Counted from the stretch's first letter, positions 1 through 5,217 are shown. The stretch: DNA of 5,217 bases from a virus (IMGVR_UViG_2645727673_000004); one strand, 5' to 3'. Made by a program: numbers and translations. Notes: a model not told the origin generated them from the letters alone.

Positions 1-642
1 CGCCGTCAGTCGCCCGTCCGGTGTAAGGGAAAATGCAGGAGGATTACCGCCGCTGGTAATGGTGGGAGCCGTCAGATATTTCAGGAACACGTCGTTCATG
101 AATATCTGATCACCCTGACCAACAAACATCGGCTTTGTGTTGCCATTCGCAGGATTAATCATCGCAATCCTGTCTGCCGCCAGCAGCACCTGACTCTGCA
201 TTCCTGCTGGCGTATTCTCAATACCGGCACCGATACCCGCAATATAAAGGCGTCCGTCCTGCATCTGCTGCAGTTTCACGGCCCACATGCTGTTCAGGTT
301 ATTATTTGTATCAACCTGAACCTTCTGTATCTGCTGGATCGCTGCACTCTGGTCTTCCAGTTTCTTATTGACGGTCTGTGTGATTTCATTGCTGACATCC
401 GTAATGGATGTCCTGATTTCAGCCAGGTCAGGCGCAAGCTGACCGTTATCAATCTGCGTCCACAGCTCCTGAGCCAGATGGGTTTTCCCTATCTCGCCTT
501 TGAAAAAATCCAGATAGCCGGATGCGTCATCACTCGGCTGACCAACAGCCTCCACGAATGCCGATTTGCCAACGGTGTTCACACTGCGAACGTAAAAATA
601 ATAATTATGGCCCGGTTTGATATTGATACTGGCGGCTAACAT
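1..642 (-). CDS. Lambda J-like tail-tip / host-specificity protein, distal fragment; 5'-truncated and running off the window at its 3' side
   Basis: Minus-strand frame is open from the window edge to ATG at 640-642 (214 codons). Translation is [34 protein letters not shown]...[98 protein letters not shown], which I recognise as the conserved distal part of lambdoid J-family proteins (Fn3-like YYFYVRSVN strand). An in-frame TAA sits two codons upstream (646-648) and there is no SD before the ATG, so the ATG is probably fortuitous. Absent from the ORF track because its stop is outside the window. Confidence 0.6.
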
Positions 643-963: not shown

Positions 964-1257
964 ATGAAAAAAATGTTGTTTTCTGCCGCTCTGGCAATGC
1001 TTATTACAGGATGTGCTCAACAGACGTTTACTGTTGGAAACAAACCGACAGCAGTAACACCAAAGGAAACCATCACCCATCATTTCTTCGTTTCGGGAAT
1101 TGGACAGGAGAAAACTGTTGATGCAGCCAAAATTTGTGGCGGCGCAGAAAATGTTGTTAAAACAGAAACCCAGCAAACATTCGTAAATGGATTTCTCGGT
1201 TTTATTACTTTAGGCATTTATACTCCACTGGAAGCGCGTGTGTATTGCTCACAATAA
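964..1257 (+). CDS. bor: Bor outer-membrane lipoprotein (lambda bor family, serum-resistance lysogenic-conversion protein)
   Basis: Translation MKKMLFSAALAMLITGCAQQTFTVGNKPTAVTPKETITHHFFVSGIGQEKTVDAAKICGGAENVVKTETQQTFVNGFLGFITLGIYTPLEARVYCSQ (97 aa) matches lambda Bor nearly residue for residue as I recall it. Lipobox is LITGC. It is convergent with Rz, as in lambda. The ORF-track start at 916 adds 16 non-homologous residues; ATG 964 chosen. Confidence 0.9.
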   Translation: MKKMLFSAALAMLITGCAQQTFTVGNKPTAVTPKETITHHFFVSGIGQEKTVDAAKICGGAENVVKTETQQTFVNGFLGFITLGIYTPLEARVYCSQ

Positions 1258-1288: not shown

Positions 1289-1750
1289 CTATCTGCACTG
1301 CTCATTAATATACTTCTGGGTTCCTTCCAGTTGTTTTTGCATTGTGATCAGCCTCTCTCTGAGGGTGAAATAATCCCGTTCAGCGGTGTCTGCCAGTCGG
1401 GGGCTGGTTGCATTATCCACGCCGGAGGCGGTGGTGGCTTCACGCACTGACTGACAGACTGCTTTGATGTGCAACCGACGACGACCAGCGGCAACATCAG
1501 CGCGCAGAGTTTCATTTTCAGCTTTCGCATTGGCTAATTCTCTCGAGTACTTTGCATCGAGTGCAGCAACATCACGCTGACGCTGCTGCATGTCAGCGAT
1601 AGTGGCGATCGCCTGCTTCAGCTCACTGACTTTTTTATCACGCTGTTCTTTGTAGGCGATGGCGTTATCACGGTAATGATTGACCGCCCACGACAGGCAG
1701 ACGATGATGCAGATAACCAAAGCATAAATAATCGCGGCGACTCTGCTCAC
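1289..1750 (-). CDS. Rz: Rz i-spanin (inner-membrane spanin subunit)
   Basis: Translation [39 protein letters not shown]...[62 protein letters not shown] is near-identical to lambda Rz. I place the start at GTG 1748-1750, which overlaps the R stop (GTGA) and has GGGGGA 7 nt upstream; this gives 153 aa as in lambda. The ORF-track start at 1765 is a TTG with no SD. Confidence 0.85.
1348..1530 (-). CDS. Rz1: Rz1 o-spanin (outer-membrane lipoprotein), fully embedded in Rz in the +1 frame
   Basis: 60-aa [63 protein letters not shown] has lipobox LVVVGC and a proline-rich stretch, and is near-identical to lambda Rz1. It lies entirely inside Rz. Confidence 0.85.
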
Positions 1751-2280
1751 TGCTCTATCCCCCAACAGGCTAATGCGCTTTCCTGGTCACGACGAATAAC
1801 CTGTCCATAGCAGTTATTTGAACGTATGCGGCAATCGCGCCCACCATCTTTTATCCACCAGCGAATCGCCTCGCATGCGCCCTTACGATCACCGGCATTC
1901 AGCCGCTTATAAAACGTCGACGGGAAACACTTACCGGGGCCAATGTTATAGGGACAGAATGACGCTATACCCGCTTTTTGTGGTTCGGTCAGTAGTACTT
2001 TAATATTGCGCTCCACCCATGCCAGCGCCTTATCACGCTCAATGGCGTTGACCTGGTCGCATTTTTCCTTCGACAGTTTCATACCGGGAAAAACGGGTTT
2101 TCCATCCACCATCGTGGCACCCCGACAGATGGTCCAGATGCCGGACCCATCGCGGTATGCCGTTGTGTGGTTACCTTCTTTTTCATCCAGAAACTGGTCG
2201 AGAATATCAGGCGCGGGCGCACCGACGGCAATCAGTGCCAGAACGGCAGCCGACAGGCCGTATCTGATTTTTGCGTTCAT
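1747..2280 (-). CDS. R: Endolysin, glycoside hydrolase family 24 (T4-lysozyme-like) with N-terminal SAR/signal-anchor segment
   Basis: 177-aa ORF with ATG start. N-terminal weakly hydrophobic Gly/Ala-rich segment [18 protein letters not shown] is followed by the catalytic E-x8-D-x5-T pattern ([16 protein letters not shown]). It matches the endolysins of Stx/lambdoid phages that I recall, and its stop overlaps the Rz start. Confidence 0.9.
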
Positions 2281-2343
2281 GGATATTTATCAGGATTTAT
2301 CGGTTTCTGCCCACGGACAGGTTTATCTGTTCCGGTCAGTGAC

Positions 2344-2694
2344 TTAAGGTTGTGATTCCGGAGGAGTCTTCAGAGAACCAGTAATTCTTCCCGGTAGCTT
2401 TCCTTTGTAGGTTATCCATACATTCTGCGCCTCTAAAATTACGGGGCGCTTTTCCGGCGACTGCTCATCCCCTTCACATAACCCGGCAGCAACATCCAGG
2501 AAGACCTGTCTGATACTCATTCTGGCTGCTGCCTCATAAAACTCCAGCGCGGCACCTTCAACACGGTCCAGCGAGATGTCCAGGTCAAAAATTTCACCGT
2601 CAAAGCGTTTTTTGTCCCGTAACGCTAAAGTTACCGTAACTTTATTCTCAAAATTGCGGATCCCTTTCACAATCAGTTCATAGTTTTGAGTCAT
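2344..2694 (-). CDS. DUF1327-family protein (YdfR-like) located between holin and endolysin
   Basis: 116-aa ORF MTQNYELIVKGIRNFENKVTVTLALRDKKRFDGEIFDLDISLDRVEGAALEFYEAAARMSIRQVFLDVAAG... resembles E. coli Qin-prophage YdfR, which lies between essQ and rrrQ (from memory). ATG at 2694 has GGGGAGAG upstream and sits 4 nt after the holin stop. Confidence 0.7.
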   Translation of the reverse strand: MTQNYELIVKGIRNFENKVTVTLALRDKKRFDGEIFDLDISLDRVEGAALEFYEAAARMSIRQVFLDVAAGLCEGDEQSPEKRPVILEAQNVWITYKGKLPGRITGSLKTPPESQP

Positions 2695-2698
2695 TGAA

Positions 2699-2914
2699 TT
2701 ACTCTCCCCGTGCCGCCTTACGACGGTCCTCTCTGATTTTGAAATACAGGTTAGTCAGATATGTCAGCAGCCCAAACAGCAGACTCCCCAGCACGCCTAT
2801 TGCCGCCCACTGAGACGGGGAAACCCTGTCCAGCAACTGCAGGAACCAGTAGCCCGTTCCCACCGCTGACGTGGTGTATGACACACCTGTTGTGATTTTT
2901 TCCATCTGGTCCAT
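2699..2914 (-). CDS. S: Class II holin / pinholin of the phage 21 S family, with dual-start motif (antiholin from Met1, holin from Met4)
   Basis: Translation [71 protein letters not shown] (71 aa) closely matches S21 as I recall it. Two in-frame ATGs at 2912-2914 and 2903-2905 give the classic dual start, with GGGAGA upstream. The ORF-track N-terminal extension to 3019 begins at GTG and contains a terminator, so it is rejected. Confidence 0.85.
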
Positions 2915-2946
2915 ACCCCGTCTCCCGTTATCCGGAAGCTGACAAC

Positions 2947-2978
2947 AATAAAAAAGCCACCAGTTAACTACTGATGGC
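2947..2978 (-). terminator. Rho-independent terminator on the late strand, immediately upstream of the holin
   Basis: Minus-strand RNA GCCAUCAG-UAGUUAA-CUGGUGGC forms an 8-bp stem with one G-U pair, followed by UUUUUUAUUG. Confidence 0.5.
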
Positions 2979-3221
2979 TCTGATAACTCATGCAAGCGTC
3001 TCAGACGATCCACTGACACTACCGGTGAGTTTAACGATACCTTCCATTTGACTGGCTCACTTTTTATGATGATGCCGGTGTATTTATCTCCAGCACCAGA
3101 CTTTCTATCTCAACGCCATACGTTGCATTTTTGGTAATATCCGTCAGCGTCAGTGCATTTAGTCCCACTGCCAGACCGTCTTTTATGGTCTGGAATGCCG
3201 GGCCAGTACGATGACGTAGTA

Positions 3222-3410
3222 TCACTCCGGCTCAGTTGCACCACTGACCACCACATCACCTTCTGCTGCAATCGCCTGCATCAGGGTATAAGGGGTTATG
3301 GCCACCGGACTACCAAACGGCTGCCAGCCCTCTTTCAGTTTATGTGTCAGCTTTTCCGCAAGATCTGACGGCGGCGCCGCCCTGACAACATCATAGTGTT
3401 TAAATGCCAT
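3222..3410 (-). CDS. Small DUF1737-like protein (62 aa)
   Basis: ORF MAFKHYDVVRAAPPSDLAEKLTHKLKEGWQPFGSPVAITPYTLMQAIAAEGDVVVSGATEPE carries the EGWQP-G motif that I associate with DUF1737 small proteins. ATG 3408-3410 is preceded by GGTGGAAAG; an alternative ATG at 3425 (MVERT...) has no SD. Confidence 0.55.
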   Translation of the reverse strand: MAFKHYDVVRAAPPSDLAEKLTHKLKEGWQPFGSPVAITPYTLMQAIAAEGDVVVSGATEPE

Positions 3411-3670
3411 GGTTCTTTCCACCATCTGAAAAATAATTCTTTAAAATACCAGACATGTAACACAGAAAAAACACAAAACCATACCTTAAATAGAAACCTG
3501 ATCATCAAGCAGATATGCATGGATAAACTACAAGACGAGATATAAACCACCCTGCATTTAAATAAACAATAAACAACATCAGAAAAATAATTCTGCTCTA
3601 TGGTTTATATTCAAAAATATCATTTATACTTTTCAGAACATCACCAGCAAGGCATAAACAAGGAAGCTAA

Positions 3671-4006
3671 ATGAAGTGGATTGTAATTGATACAGTTATC
3701 CAGCCATCATGCGGAATATCTTTTTCAGTCATATGGAGTAAAGTAAAATTAATAATCTGGTATCAATCGGATGCTTTCTTACCTCCTGAAAGTATATTTA
3801 CACTGACTCACACAGGTATCATGCTCAATAACAAAGTGCTACCTGTAACCATTTACAACGTAGTACCATTCAATAAAACATTCTGGAATTTAATCAAAAA
3901 CAGCCAGGAATGCCCTACAAATACAGATAACGTATTGAATGAATGCTTTAATAACCGTTGCATTCTGCAAATATGTCCTTATGGACTAAAACAACAAAGT
4001 CCATAA
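3671..4006 (+). CDS. Hypothetical protein, AT-rich orphan ORF (111 aa) opposite to the late operon
   Basis: ATG at 3671 is preceded by AAGGAAG (3660-3666). A 111-codon open frame in strongly AT-rich sequence is unlikely by chance because stop codons are AT-rich. Protein is [111 protein letters not shown]; no family recognised. Confidence 0.45.
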
Positions 4007-4027
4007 GGAGTTTACTCACATCTGACA

Positions 4028-4062
4028 AAATCAATATAAACAGCCCCTCCGGAGAGGGGCTG
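4028..4062 (-). terminator. Rho-independent terminator on the late strand (3' end of repeat unit R1)
   Basis: Perfect 9-bp GC-rich stem CAGCCCCUC-(4-nt loop)-GAGGGGCUG at 4041-4062, followed on the minus strand by UUUAUAUUGAUUUUGUC. There is no U-tract on the plus side. Confidence 0.6.
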
Positions 4063-4276
4063 GAGAGTGGCGCTATGTGCCATTGCATGGTGCCGGGTGC
4101 CTCCCGGTGAATTCAGTACCAGCACCTGAATCCGCGATTATCCCATATACCTACTCGCTGATTACCCCTCCGCACAGGGGGATTCACCATGCGAAATTTT
4201 TTAACAAACTTCCCGCCGGCCAGACAATAATCGCCAGCCTGAATTATGAGCAACGTGGCATTTTACGGGAAAACTG
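4041..4276. repeat. Repeat unit R1 of a diverged ~240-bp direct repeat (paralog of 4505-4746)
   Basis: Aligns with 4505-4746 along its whole length with several indels, roughly three-quarters identical by eye. Shared blocks include the 20-mer AGCCCCTCCGGAGAGGGGCT, GCATGGTGCC-GG-GCCTCCCGGT-AATTCAG, GGGGGATTCACCATGCG and TTTTTAACAAA...CCAGACAAT. Confidence 0.75.
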
Positions 4277-4283
4277 TTTTCTG

Positions 4284-4310
4284 CAGTAAAAAGGCCCGCC
4301 GGAGCGAGCC
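4284..4310 (-). terminator. Imperfect GC-hairpin terminator on the late strand, upstream boundary of R1
   Basis: GGCCCGC-CGGA-GCGAGCC at 4293-4310 has a 7-bp stem with one mismatch and the same CGGA loop as the repeat hairpins, followed on the minus strand by UUUUUAC. Confidence 0.4.
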
Positions 4311-4496
4311 TGGAAGGATAGCGGTCATGTGATGCCGGTTTCCCGGTAACTCAGCATCGGTATCTGAGTCAACGTTTTCTCTACTGGGTCATTTCCGATA
4401 CGTTCCGCCTTCCGGCAGACTTTCATCACGTCAGAAAATATAGCACCCTGAGTAACAGGACAGTACTCAGAATTCAGGAAACTGTGACACATCCTG

Positions 4497-4524
4497 CACA
4501 GAAAAGCCCCTCCGGAGAGGGGCT
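4497..4524 (-). terminator. Rho-independent terminator on the late strand (3' end of repeat unit R2)
   Basis: Perfect 8-bp stem AGCCCCUC-(4-nt loop)-GAGGGGCU at 4505-4524, followed on the minus strand by UUUUCUGUGC. Confidence 0.55.
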
Positions 4525-4746
4525 GAAGTATAGCCTAATTTCTGTCTGTCGCATGGTGCCAGGGGCCTCCCGGTAAATTCAGCCTGTCTACTGAATTTGC
4601 ATGTTCTCTGGATCATACACTTTGCCAGATGCCCCGCCGCTGAGGGGGATTCACCATGCGATGTAATTTTTAACAAATTCTCCGGCAGCCAGACAATCAT
4701 CAAGCTGTGGAATTGTGAGGTATTTAAAAATTTCAACGGGTAACTG
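4505..4746. repeat. Repeat unit R2 (paralog of 4041-4276)
   Basis: See R1. Same block order and orientation, and the same palindromic 20-mer at its left end. Confidence 0.75.
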
Positions 4747-4890
4747 ATACCCTGCTAATCGCCTGATGCTTTCTTTTTCAGCAACGGGAAAGCAACAACC
4801 ACACACCCGCCACCAAAACACCATCAGACAGCACCGACATTATCCGGCTGCTGAAGTCCACCATCACCACCAGAAACAACAGGAGTGCAA

Positions 4891-4939
4891 CCACAGCTGC
4901 TTAGAAGGCAATTGCTCTGCCCGGCTGAGCTAACAACGC
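4891..4939 (-). pseudogene. Degenerate tRNA-Arg(UCU)-like fragment (5' half only: acceptor arm, D-arm, anticodon arm)
   Basis: Minus strand reads GCGTTGT-TAGCTCAGCCGGGCAGAGC-A-ATTGC-CTTCTAA-GCAGC, with the D-arm and anticodon loop (U33, anticodon UCU) arranged like argU-type tRNA-Arg. No T-arm (no GTTCGAATC) or acceptor 3' strand follows, so it is a remnant. Confidence 0.3.
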
Positions 4940-5039
4940 TGAATACCGATAATGGACCGCCATCGGGGACCCGCCCCCGCACCAACAACCCTGTTATCGT
5001 GTCGTCTGCTCTTCCTGATAAGCTAATGGCGGTTTGTGA

Positions 5040-5115
5040 TGGTGGCCCTTGCTGGATTTGAACCAGCGACCTGGCGATTATGAGTCGCTCGCTCTCACCA
5101 CTGAGCTAAAGGGCC
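5040..5115 (-). tRNA. tRNA with CAU anticodon, most similar to tRNA-Ile2 (ileX/ileZ-like, lysidine type); may be annotated tRNA-Met
   Basis: Minus strand GGCCCTTTAGCTCAGTGGTGAGAGCGAGCGACTCATAATCGCCAGGTCGCTGGTTCAAATCCAGCAAGGGCCACCA is 76 nt and folds as a canonical cloverleaf: 7-bp acceptor stem, GCTC/GAGC D-stem, anticodon loop CUCAUAA, T-arm GCTGG-TTCAAAT-CCAGC, encoded CCA. It differs at only a handful of positions from E. coli ileX as I recall it. Confidence 0.9.
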
Positions 5116-5150
5116 GGGAGTAGAATAATAACGGTCCGTAATTAATTCCG

Positions 5151-5178
5151 CAATAAAAAACCCGCTCGGCGGCGGGTT
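5151..5178 (-). terminator. Rho-independent terminator on the late strand upstream of the tRNA (tR'-like)
   Basis: Minus-strand RNA AACCCGC-CGCCGA-GCGGGUU forms a 7-bp stem followed by UUUUAUUG. Its position upstream of the ileZ-like tRNA matches the tR' position in Stx-type phages. Confidence 0.55.
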
Positions 5179-5217
5179 GTAGAAACTCTTCTAACGCCAG
5201 GCATAAAAAGCCCATTA

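Follow-up and report, generated by a model that had tools for sequence, protein, structure and literature searches.

Why would a temperate phage set five intrinsic terminators, all facing the same way, between its late regulator and its lysis genes? The question is raised by a stretch of the viral sequence IMGVR_UViG_2645727673_000004 (5,217 nucleotides (nt), hereafter the window, with positions counted from its first letter), which on its sequence features is the late-gene leader and lysis region of a lambda-type Escherichia coli prophage, with late transcription on the minus strand, from right to left. A preliminary description of this DNA had noticed the five terminators, here numbered T1 to T5 in the direction of late transcription, and had likened them to the pR'-tR' logic of lambdoid and Shiga toxin (Stx) phages, in which the lysis genes are reached only by a transcript antiterminated by Q. 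We consider it quite probable that the five sites are parts of a known lambda-type late leader, namely a tR', the ends of three small RNA (sRNA) genes and a conserved pre-holin hairpin, which stop lysogenic transcription before the lysis genes.

In a lysogen, transcripts from the late promoter pR' would stop at T1 (as the tR'), leaving a leader RNA of about 68 nt. Downstream of T1 would lie a string of independently transcribed cargo units ("morons"), comprising a tRNA with its promoter pT and a DUF3927 open reading frame (ORF), three tandem sRNA genes, an iraM-like gene and an esterase remnant. T2, T3 and T4 would be intrinsic terminators built into the three sRNA genes, every cargo unit thereby coming with a stop of its own, and T5 would be the last gate before the holin. 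Upon induction, Q would load onto polymerase paused at pR', which would then read through all five sites into the holin, endolysin and spanin genes. Promoter activity, termination efficiency and Q read-through are argued here by analogy with lambda and the Stx phages. The anatomy as such is already known, and the established picture of Q antitermination is unchanged; what is mildly new is that three sRNA units form a tandem cassette, and that the pre-holin hairpin appears to be both general and conserved in structure. The locus would offer a compact example of how genes active in the lysogen (for a tRNA, regulatory sRNAs and a paralogue of the RpoS-stabilizing IraM) can be carried in the late leader of a temperate phage without accidental lysis, and it bears on the annotation of prophage sRNAs and on the reading of RNA sequencing (RNA-seq) data from lysogens.

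Five terminators on the late strand

The sequence features, homologies, conservation and strand bias described below are direct observations, beginning with the terminators themselves, whose stems in a consensus scan of the window lie as follows.

5178-5159, minus strand: stem of T1
4524-4505, minus strand: stem of T2
4311-4292, minus strand: stem of T3
4062-4041, minus strand: stem of T4
2943-2981, minus strand: T5, with its hairpin at 2981-2953 (12-bp stem) and its T-tract at 2952-2943

The coordinates first proposed for the five sites hold to within a few bases, except that the stem of T5 reaches 2981 and not 2978. T1 to T5 are the five best terminator-like sites of the consensus scan, all of them on the minus strand; with sites of any quality counted, the same scan returned 16, compared with 4.6 ± 2.4 in shuffled sequences. 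A strict scan (stem of at least 7 bp with at least 5 G-C pairs, loop of 3-8 nt, and at least 5 T in 8 nt) returned exactly T1 to T5 on the minus strand and zero sites on the plus strand, where 300 dinucleotide-preserving shuffles gave a mean of 0.12 sites over both strands and a maximum of 1. No strong terminator-like site other than these five is present in the window, and all of them face the late strand. Nor is there a U-tract on the plus side, in agreement with the preliminary description: the 15 nt that follow the hairpins of T1 to T5 on the plus strand are GTAGAAACTCTTCTA, AAGTATAGCCTAATT, GGAAGGATAGCGGTC, GAGAGTGGCGCTATG and TGATAACTCATGCAA, respectively. Bidirectional terminators were rejected, as the strict scan is without any plus-strand site.

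At all five sites a T-rich tail directly follows a G+C-rich hairpin with a stem of 7-12 bp and 5-7 G-C pairs. The free-energy scoring proposed as a check gave, with short flanks, -11.2 (T1), -17.3 (T2), -15.6 (T3), -20.3 (T4) and -17.0 (T5) kcal/mol, and so -11.2 to -20.3 kcal/mol for the set. In a d'Aubenton-Carafa-type scoring of the tails, T1 reaches 4.76, T2 3.65, T3 3.88, T4 3.45 and T5 4.18, and the same scoring gives 4.27 for lambda tR', 4.69 for the mapped tR' of phage 933W and 5.39 for PasD, a prophage sRNA that we return to below. The tails read UUUUUUAUU (T1), UUUAUAUU (T4) and UUUUUUAUUGUUG (T5). The T runs before the first interruption are the shortest of the set at T2 (4), T3 (5) and T4 (3), and it is on account of these short runs that we regard T2-T4 as the weaker sites.

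The late promoter, the first terminator and the cargo behind it

The right flank of the window was read from locus L001 (window position x corresponds to L001 position x + 3101), and both elements that had been predicted to lie just beyond the right edge are located there. The Q gene encodes 273 amino acids (aa), matches PF03589 (the lambda Q family) with 182.8 bits against a cut-off of 26.7, and has its stop codon 42 nt past the edge. Directly after this stop lies a lambda-like pR' (TTGATT, 16 nt, TGgTAAATT, cgtcat, then AATAATGGG; in lambda, TTGACT, 17 nt, TAAATT, tgactc, AACGATGGG), with its -35, -10 and +1 at approximately 5253-5219 and a predicted start at 5219, 2 nt outside the window. 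Its hexamers have 8/12 matches, which is under the threshold of the consensus scan, and the promoter was judged on sequence alone. An automatic alignment of the lambda, 933W and window-phage pR' regions was uninformative, and lambda was compared by eye.

In lambda, Q loads at a sigma70-dependent pause, which is caused by a -10-like element at +1 to +6. We compared this element across 80 IMG/VR loci with a Q 94-100% identical to that of the window phage: from +1 to +9 the window phage reads AATAATGGG, most of the 80 read AACGATGGG, identical to lambda, and the variants change only at +3 and +4, with the A at +2 and the T at +6 kept. The forms of +1 to +6 encountered (window 5219-5211, L001 8320-8312; loci L005-L084) are AACGAT, AATGAT, AATAAT, AACTAT, AAAGAT and AACAAT, and the GGG that follows is fixed. 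Such variation may tune the strength of the pause.

5151-5217, minus strand: pR' leader RNA (from about +3 to its end), including T1 (stem 5178-5159, T-tract 5158-5151)

T1 lies at about +41 to +68 from the predicted pR' start, which would make the leader about 68 nt long, and of the 58 loci that combine the same Q with a recognizable holin, 55 show a strict terminator 73-82 nt past the Q stop. On the strength of this position and its conservation, we take T1 as the tR' candidate of the phage. That the leader might be the 66-nt sRNA HnrS (EcOnc10) was considered and rejected, since EcOnc10 of Sakai Sp12 lies downstream of Rz, at the bor position, and not beside Q. The likeness to the pR'-tR' logic that had been pointed out is more than a likeness, with T1 as the tR' candidate and the order Q, pR', terminator, pT, ileZ-type tRNA being that of 933W.

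With lambda, the locus shares the Q family, a promoter directly after Q, the -10 hexamer TAAATT, and the same spacing to the pause element and the GGG that follows it; in both, an intrinsic terminator is followed by the order S, R, Rz/Rz1, with bor on the opposite strand. The two differ in that Q has 273 aa with an extra N-terminal part here and 207 aa in lambda, that the spacer between -35 and -10, where lambda Q binds, is unrelated, and that the leader is about 68 nt here and 194 nt in lambda. Between tR' and S, lambda is free of cargo, and it has just the one terminator, whereas the window phage carries 2.3 kb of cargo and four more terminators.

The first cargo unit follows T1 immediately.

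5125-5153, minus strand: putative tRNA promoter pT (TTGCGG-17 nt-TATTAT), overlapping the T-tract of T1; read from L001
5040-5115, minus strand: tRNA with anticodon CAU (ARAGORN; Rfam tRNA model, 72.5 bits), identical to 933W ileZ
4778-4894, minus strand: DUF3927 ORF of 38 aa (Pfam PF13064, 42.6 bits), directly upstream of the first sRNA unit

The pT segment is homologous to a region of the 933W record annotated "pT; putative tRNA promoter", and differential RNA-seq of the Stx2 phage of strain Sakai has mapped a primary start for transcription of the tRNAs, located between them and tR' (PMC7547250). Because of this homologue and this mapped start, lysogenic transcription very probably restarts after T1. 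With one or more promoters, probably four in all, firing past T1, one terminator would not suffice, and the later ones are plausibly needed to shield the lysis genes. ARAGORN names the tRNA at 5040-5115 tRNA-Met (CAT) and PGAP names it tRNA-Ile, the latter presuming lysidine modification.

The late leader of 933W and Sakai Sp5 has the order pR', StxS/tR', pT, ileZ-argN-argO, stx2AB, STnc100/EcOnc27, AsxR, esterase, S. In common with it, the window phage has the identical ileZ-type tRNA, the homologous pT, a similar first hairpin (ACCCGCC...GCGGGT and a T run) after pR', STnc100 cargo in the late leader, an esterase before the holin, and several co-oriented terminators. Unlike it, the window phage has no stx, one tRNA only, three tandem STnc100-family units instead of one, and an esterase remnant; Q of 933W has 157 aa and is DLP12/H-19B-like, and StxS of Sp5 ends at a second terminator, where the window phage has one terminator before the tRNA.

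Behind the DUF3927 ORF, the three middle terminators coincide with the 3' ends of three related sRNA units.

4496-4689, minus strand: STnc100 sRNA gene, copy a (Rfam RF02076, 138 bits against a gathering score of 47); predicted RNA from about 4659 to about 4497, with T2 (4497-4524) as its 3' hairpin and tail
4284-4460, minus strand: diverged STnc100/PasD-like unit c (RF02076, 30.0 bits, E = 9e-4), with T3 (4284-4311) as its 3' hairpin and tail
4031-4220, minus strand: STnc100 sRNA gene, copy b (RF02076, 132.5 bits); predicted RNA from about 4192 to about 4032, with T4 (4031-4062) as its 3' hairpin and tail

Copies a and b are full-length matches to RF02076 (model positions 1-206) above the gathering score. 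Unit c fails that score (30.0 against 47 bits) and is not counted as a member of STnc100. It does align to copies a and b over a CUGAnUU..CCGG..GGCAnCA core, and it stands between two STnc100 copies in 8 other loci at 90-100% identity; by this alignment and conserved position it appears to be a diverged relative. We also considered unit c as a PasD gene and rejected this, in that PasD is common to the STnc100 copies only in the 5' 45 nt or so, PasD itself is below the RF02076 threshold, and unit c fits neither family cleanly.

PasD1 and PasD2 of enteropathogenic E. coli (EPEC) E2348/69 are discrete Hfq-dependent RNAs of 172-173 nt that start at a conserved GCAUGGUG; RNA-seq coverage put their 5' ends at that G, and the size of the Northern band is consistent with this (PMC8550237). 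The 5' ends of copies a and b were placed by alignment to the mapped PasD2 5' end (GCAUGGUG), and the 5' segment GCAUGGUGAAUCC... is common to the units of the window and to PasD1 and PasD2. The minimum free energy fold of copy a has an 8-bp closing helix round a multibranch core, then a linker and the terminator hairpin. The order of DUF3927 and then an sRNA unit recurs as DUF3927-PasD in the E2348/69 prophages PP2 and PP4. PasD and STnc100 have been described as related prophage sRNAs between Q and holin (Zhu, Shabalina and Storz, bioRxiv 10.64898/2026.05.13.724894). Compared with PasD1/PasD2 (EcOnc13) and STnc100 (EcOnc27/sRNA103), the units of the window agree in their location, which is between Q and holin and immediately behind a DUF3927 ORF, as well as in the 5' GCAUGGUGAAUCC..GG, the closing helix and the terminal intrinsic terminator. 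PasD differs in falling below the RF02076 threshold, in its other 3' half and in its 8-U tail, where the window copies have short U-tails. The number of units is also different, with three tandem paralogues here and, according to Zhu et al. (bioRxiv 10.64898/2026.05.13.724894), typically a single one per prophage region.

The family is expressed in uninduced cells. In strain EDL933, nearly all of eleven STnc100 copies are transcribed without induction (97-1897 reads per kilobase per million, RPKM), and one was confirmed by Northern blot (PMC5331693). The STnc100 copy after stx2B overlaps the Hfq-bound sRNA EcOnc27 (PMC12711010), an overlap that our own scan confirmed in 933W. Transcription probably also starts at each sRNA unit, and the tandem units c and b, which lie behind T2 and T3, require either starts of their own or read-through.

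Three smaller observations concern the same units. The T3 hairpin, AGGCTCGCTCCGGCGGGCCT (window 4292-4311), is much like the 933W terminator after argO, AGGCTCGCTTTTGCGGGCCT (locus L086, 3385-3404), and terminator modules may have been exchanged between cargo cassettes. A promoter-like motif on the plus strand (TTAACA, 16 nt, GACAAT) occurs at 4201-4228 and 4670-4697, in the 5' flank of both STnc100 copies and pointing away from the sRNA body; divergent or antisense transcripts could arise from it, or it may be no more than a consequence of the repeat. A small inverted repeat (CTGAGTA...TACTCAG; 4444-4462, minus strand) overlaps the predicted extended -10 (TGcTATATT) of unit c.

Terminator counts, the pre-holin hairpin and competing accounts

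A need for several stops would fit the numbers of strict same-strand terminators between Q and holin, which we counted in the 58 loci with the same Q and a recognizable holin. One terminator is found in 4 loci, two in 22, three in 21, four in 3, five in 6 and six in 2, these counts being lower bounds that are comparable only within one method, as the gapless strict scan misses lambda tR', with its long interrupted stem. Strict sites on the opposite strand number only 0-2 per interval. The count follows the sRNA units: loci without a unit have one terminator, those with one unit mostly two or three, and those with three or four units four to six. Among the 80 loci, the interval from Q to holin spans 740-6907 nt with 0-4 sRNA units, showing that the presence of cargo is variable, and the triple cassette of STnc100, unit c and STnc100 is found again in several different contexts. 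The density of the window, 2.13 terminators per kb, is the top of the holin-anchored sample, with its median of 0.62 per kb. The arrangement had been called unusually dense, and five terminators in 2.3 kb is indeed near the top, but it is not unique, given that 8/58 loci have five or six (one of them, L036, has six in 1.87 kb) and that the count follows the number of sRNA cassettes. In the 933W GenBank record, three "possible rho-independent terminators" are annotated between pR' and stx.

The region downstream of the Q-antiterminated pR' is known to tolerate moron insertions and to carry sRNA genes (Tree et al. 2014, PMC4104026). With the lambdoid morons, autonomous promoter-gene-terminator cassettes of the late operon (Juhala et al. 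2000, as cited in PMC4104026), the cargo of the window shares variable presence, bounding by terminators and, in family members, expression in the prophage. It differs in being mostly non-coding (sRNAs and a tRNA), and its promoters are sequence predictions.

The dependence of the count on the cassettes is also what would be expected if the series were a by-product, with T1 alone controlling the late operon, T2-T5 being private 3' ends of the cargo that serve sRNA stability and Hfq binding, and nothing significant starting past T1. Such an arrangement is made easier to envisage by the fact that tR' alone suffices in lambda, and by the weakness of the predicted sRNA promoters, together with the classing of PasD2 as derived from a 3' untranslated region (UTR). 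It is difficult to reconcile, however, with the pT homologue directly after T1 and the tRNA start mapped in the Sakai Stx2 phage, with the abundance of related sRNAs in uninduced cells, or with the need of units c and b for either starts of their own or read-through. It also leaves aside that a terminator lies within about 130 nt of the holin in nearly every architecture, even in L027, which is without sRNA genes. We therefore consider it an unlikely account of the locus, and the better placed of its competitors.

Several points nevertheless weigh against the reading of the five sites as a late leader that stops lysogenic transcription. The sRNA promoters are weak matches (TTGTCT-18 nt-TAAAAA), and the consensus scan made no minus-strand call for them. 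PasD2 is listed as 3' UTR-derived (PMC8550237), and because of this some sRNA units may be processed from longer transcripts instead of being independently started. The short, interrupted U-tracts of T2-T4 (tail scores of 3.45-3.88, against 5.39 for PasD) may make these terminators leaky. In Sp5 of strain Sakai, StxS, the pR' transcript of the lysogen, measures 258 nt, with a reported 3' end at the second terminator, at +258 (PMC7547250). Phage 933W has a T1-like hairpin at about 25-53 nt from the mapped pR' start, such that the 933W/Sp5 transcript ends past it, and by this analogy the efficiency of a T1-type hairpin is not assured. The failure of the strict scan on lambda tR', noted above, belongs here as well.

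Between the end of the T5 stem and the holin ATG there are only 38 nt, too few to accommodate a promoter. Homologues of T5 occur at the same offset in PP2 and PP4 of E2348/69 and in many IMG/VR loci. When 16 distinct variants of the T5-type hairpin are aligned, 95% of the cells are paired and 5/10 pairs show compensatory double changes, and in a control in which the 3' partner was slid by 1-3 columns, only 16-68% are paired. In many of the variants, about 10 nt separate the hairpin from the stop of an ORF upstream of it. Where the pre-holin module is unrelated in sequence, it has a different terminator of its own 40-130 nt ahead of the holin, and this includes the minimal locus L027, in which only tRNAs lie between Q and holin; nearly every architecture examined has a co-oriented terminator within about 130 nt of the holin. 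We also considered T5 as the terminator of a PasA-like sRNA and rejected this, in that PasA is unmatched, the PasA terminator faces the opposite way, and PP2 has a separate T5 homologue nearer to the holin; no similarity to PasA was found on the antisense strand of the interval from esterase to holin, blastn-short giving only 10-12-nt chance matches elsewhere in the window. A search of a paper library for an earlier description of a pre-holin terminator found nothing, which is no proof that it is undescribed. That selection maintains the pre-holin terminator as a "last gate" in lambdoid lysis cassettes generally, perhaps also setting the 5' end, stability or translation of the holin message, with a partly leaky series tuning the amount of antiterminated transcription that arrives at the holin and with it the timing of lysis, we offer as a speculation that we would not expect to hold.

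In some T5-type variants (loci L088-L167, about 30-75 nt upstream of the holin ATG), the perfect stem is kept and the T-tract has decayed to CTCTTGTTG or ACTTGTTG. The keeping of the stem by compensation despite this decay hints at a role of the hairpin besides termination, and lends some weight to a view in which the hairpins are mainly RNA processing or stability elements within the antiterminated late mRNA, protecting 3' ends after cleavage or controlling holin translation from the 5' side. The short U-tracts at T2-T4 would fit as well. For the set as a whole we find this improbable, even more so than the by-product account, since all five sites have the canonical G+C-rich stem and T-rich tail with tail scores in the range of proven terminators, since all five are co-oriented with transcription, and since members of the sRNA family yield discrete RNAs that end at these hairpins (PMC5331693, PMC8550237). 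Finally, chance hairpins, or a generic family resembling repetitive extragenic palindromic (REP) elements without transcriptional meaning, to which the almost identical stems of T2 and T4 (AGCCCCTCTCCGGAGGGGCT) could point as a dispersed repeat, are effectively refuted by the shuffles (five observed against 0.12 expected) and the Rfam matches, the T2/T4 likeness being explained by paralogy of whole 190-nt sRNA genes, and T1, T3 and T5 differing in sequence and having homologues at fixed positions in other phages.

With the lambda-type late leader thus preferred, the outline given in the preliminary description was right; what it had left unnoticed is that the T2 and T4 hairpins belong to STnc100 and that T3 is the end of a paralogue, that a tRNA and a pT homologue lie between T1 and T2, and that T5 is conserved.

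Neighbouring genes and occurrence of the stretch

Genes were called from the annotation of identical records, from PGAP, Pfam and NCBIfam scans, and from a list of ORFs. In the direction of the minus strand they follow the order Q (off the right edge), tRNA, DUF3927 ORF, the non-coding segment 4030-4700, the DUF1737 ORF and a 53-aa ORF, holin, and the remaining lysis genes.

3671-4006, plus strand: IraM-family anti-adapter gene, a stabilizer of RpoS (NCBIfam NF007393, 162 bits against a cut-off of 121; IraM in the annotation of matching genomes)
3064-3425, minus strand: remnant of a nanS-p/SASA-type esterase, with the DUF1737 N-terminus at 3222-3425 (Pfam PF08410) and a C-terminal 53-aa ORF at 3064-3225
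1289-2914, minus strand: lysis cassette (Pfam PF04971, PF07041, PF00959 and PF03245; ORF list; annotation of identical records), consisting of the four entries that follow
2699-2914, minus strand: class II holin
2344-2694, minus strand: DUF1327/YdfR
1747-2280, minus strand: lysozyme
1289-1750 and 1348-1530, minus strand: Rz/Rz1
964-1257, plus strand: bor/iss

Embedded in the late leader and read from the other strand, the iraM-like gene converges on T4; no canonical plus-strand terminator follows it. Upstream of it is an AT-rich region (3430-3660), and a 21-nt direct repeat is found at 3420-3440 and 3574-3594. In the esterase remnant, which PGAP marks as incomplete, the DUF1737 ORF (67 aa) corresponds to residues 1-56 and the 53-aa ORF to residues 610-640 of the 645-aa esterase of 933W (blastp), and these matches to the two ends of the protein indicate a large internal deletion in the esterase gene.

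The stretch 2900-5217 is found with 100% identity in four deposited E. coli phage records, and at least 80% of the window is present, at high identity, in 356 of 5426 complete E. coli genomes (about 6.6%). At its left end (1-636, minus strand), the window carries a truncated tail-tip (J-like) gene adjoining bor/iss. In place of this J-like remnant, an HNH endonuclease and a terminase are found in most matching genomes and phages, whose match to the window does not begin until 637. Packaging and head genes have probably been lost from the source prophage, which may be a defective one.

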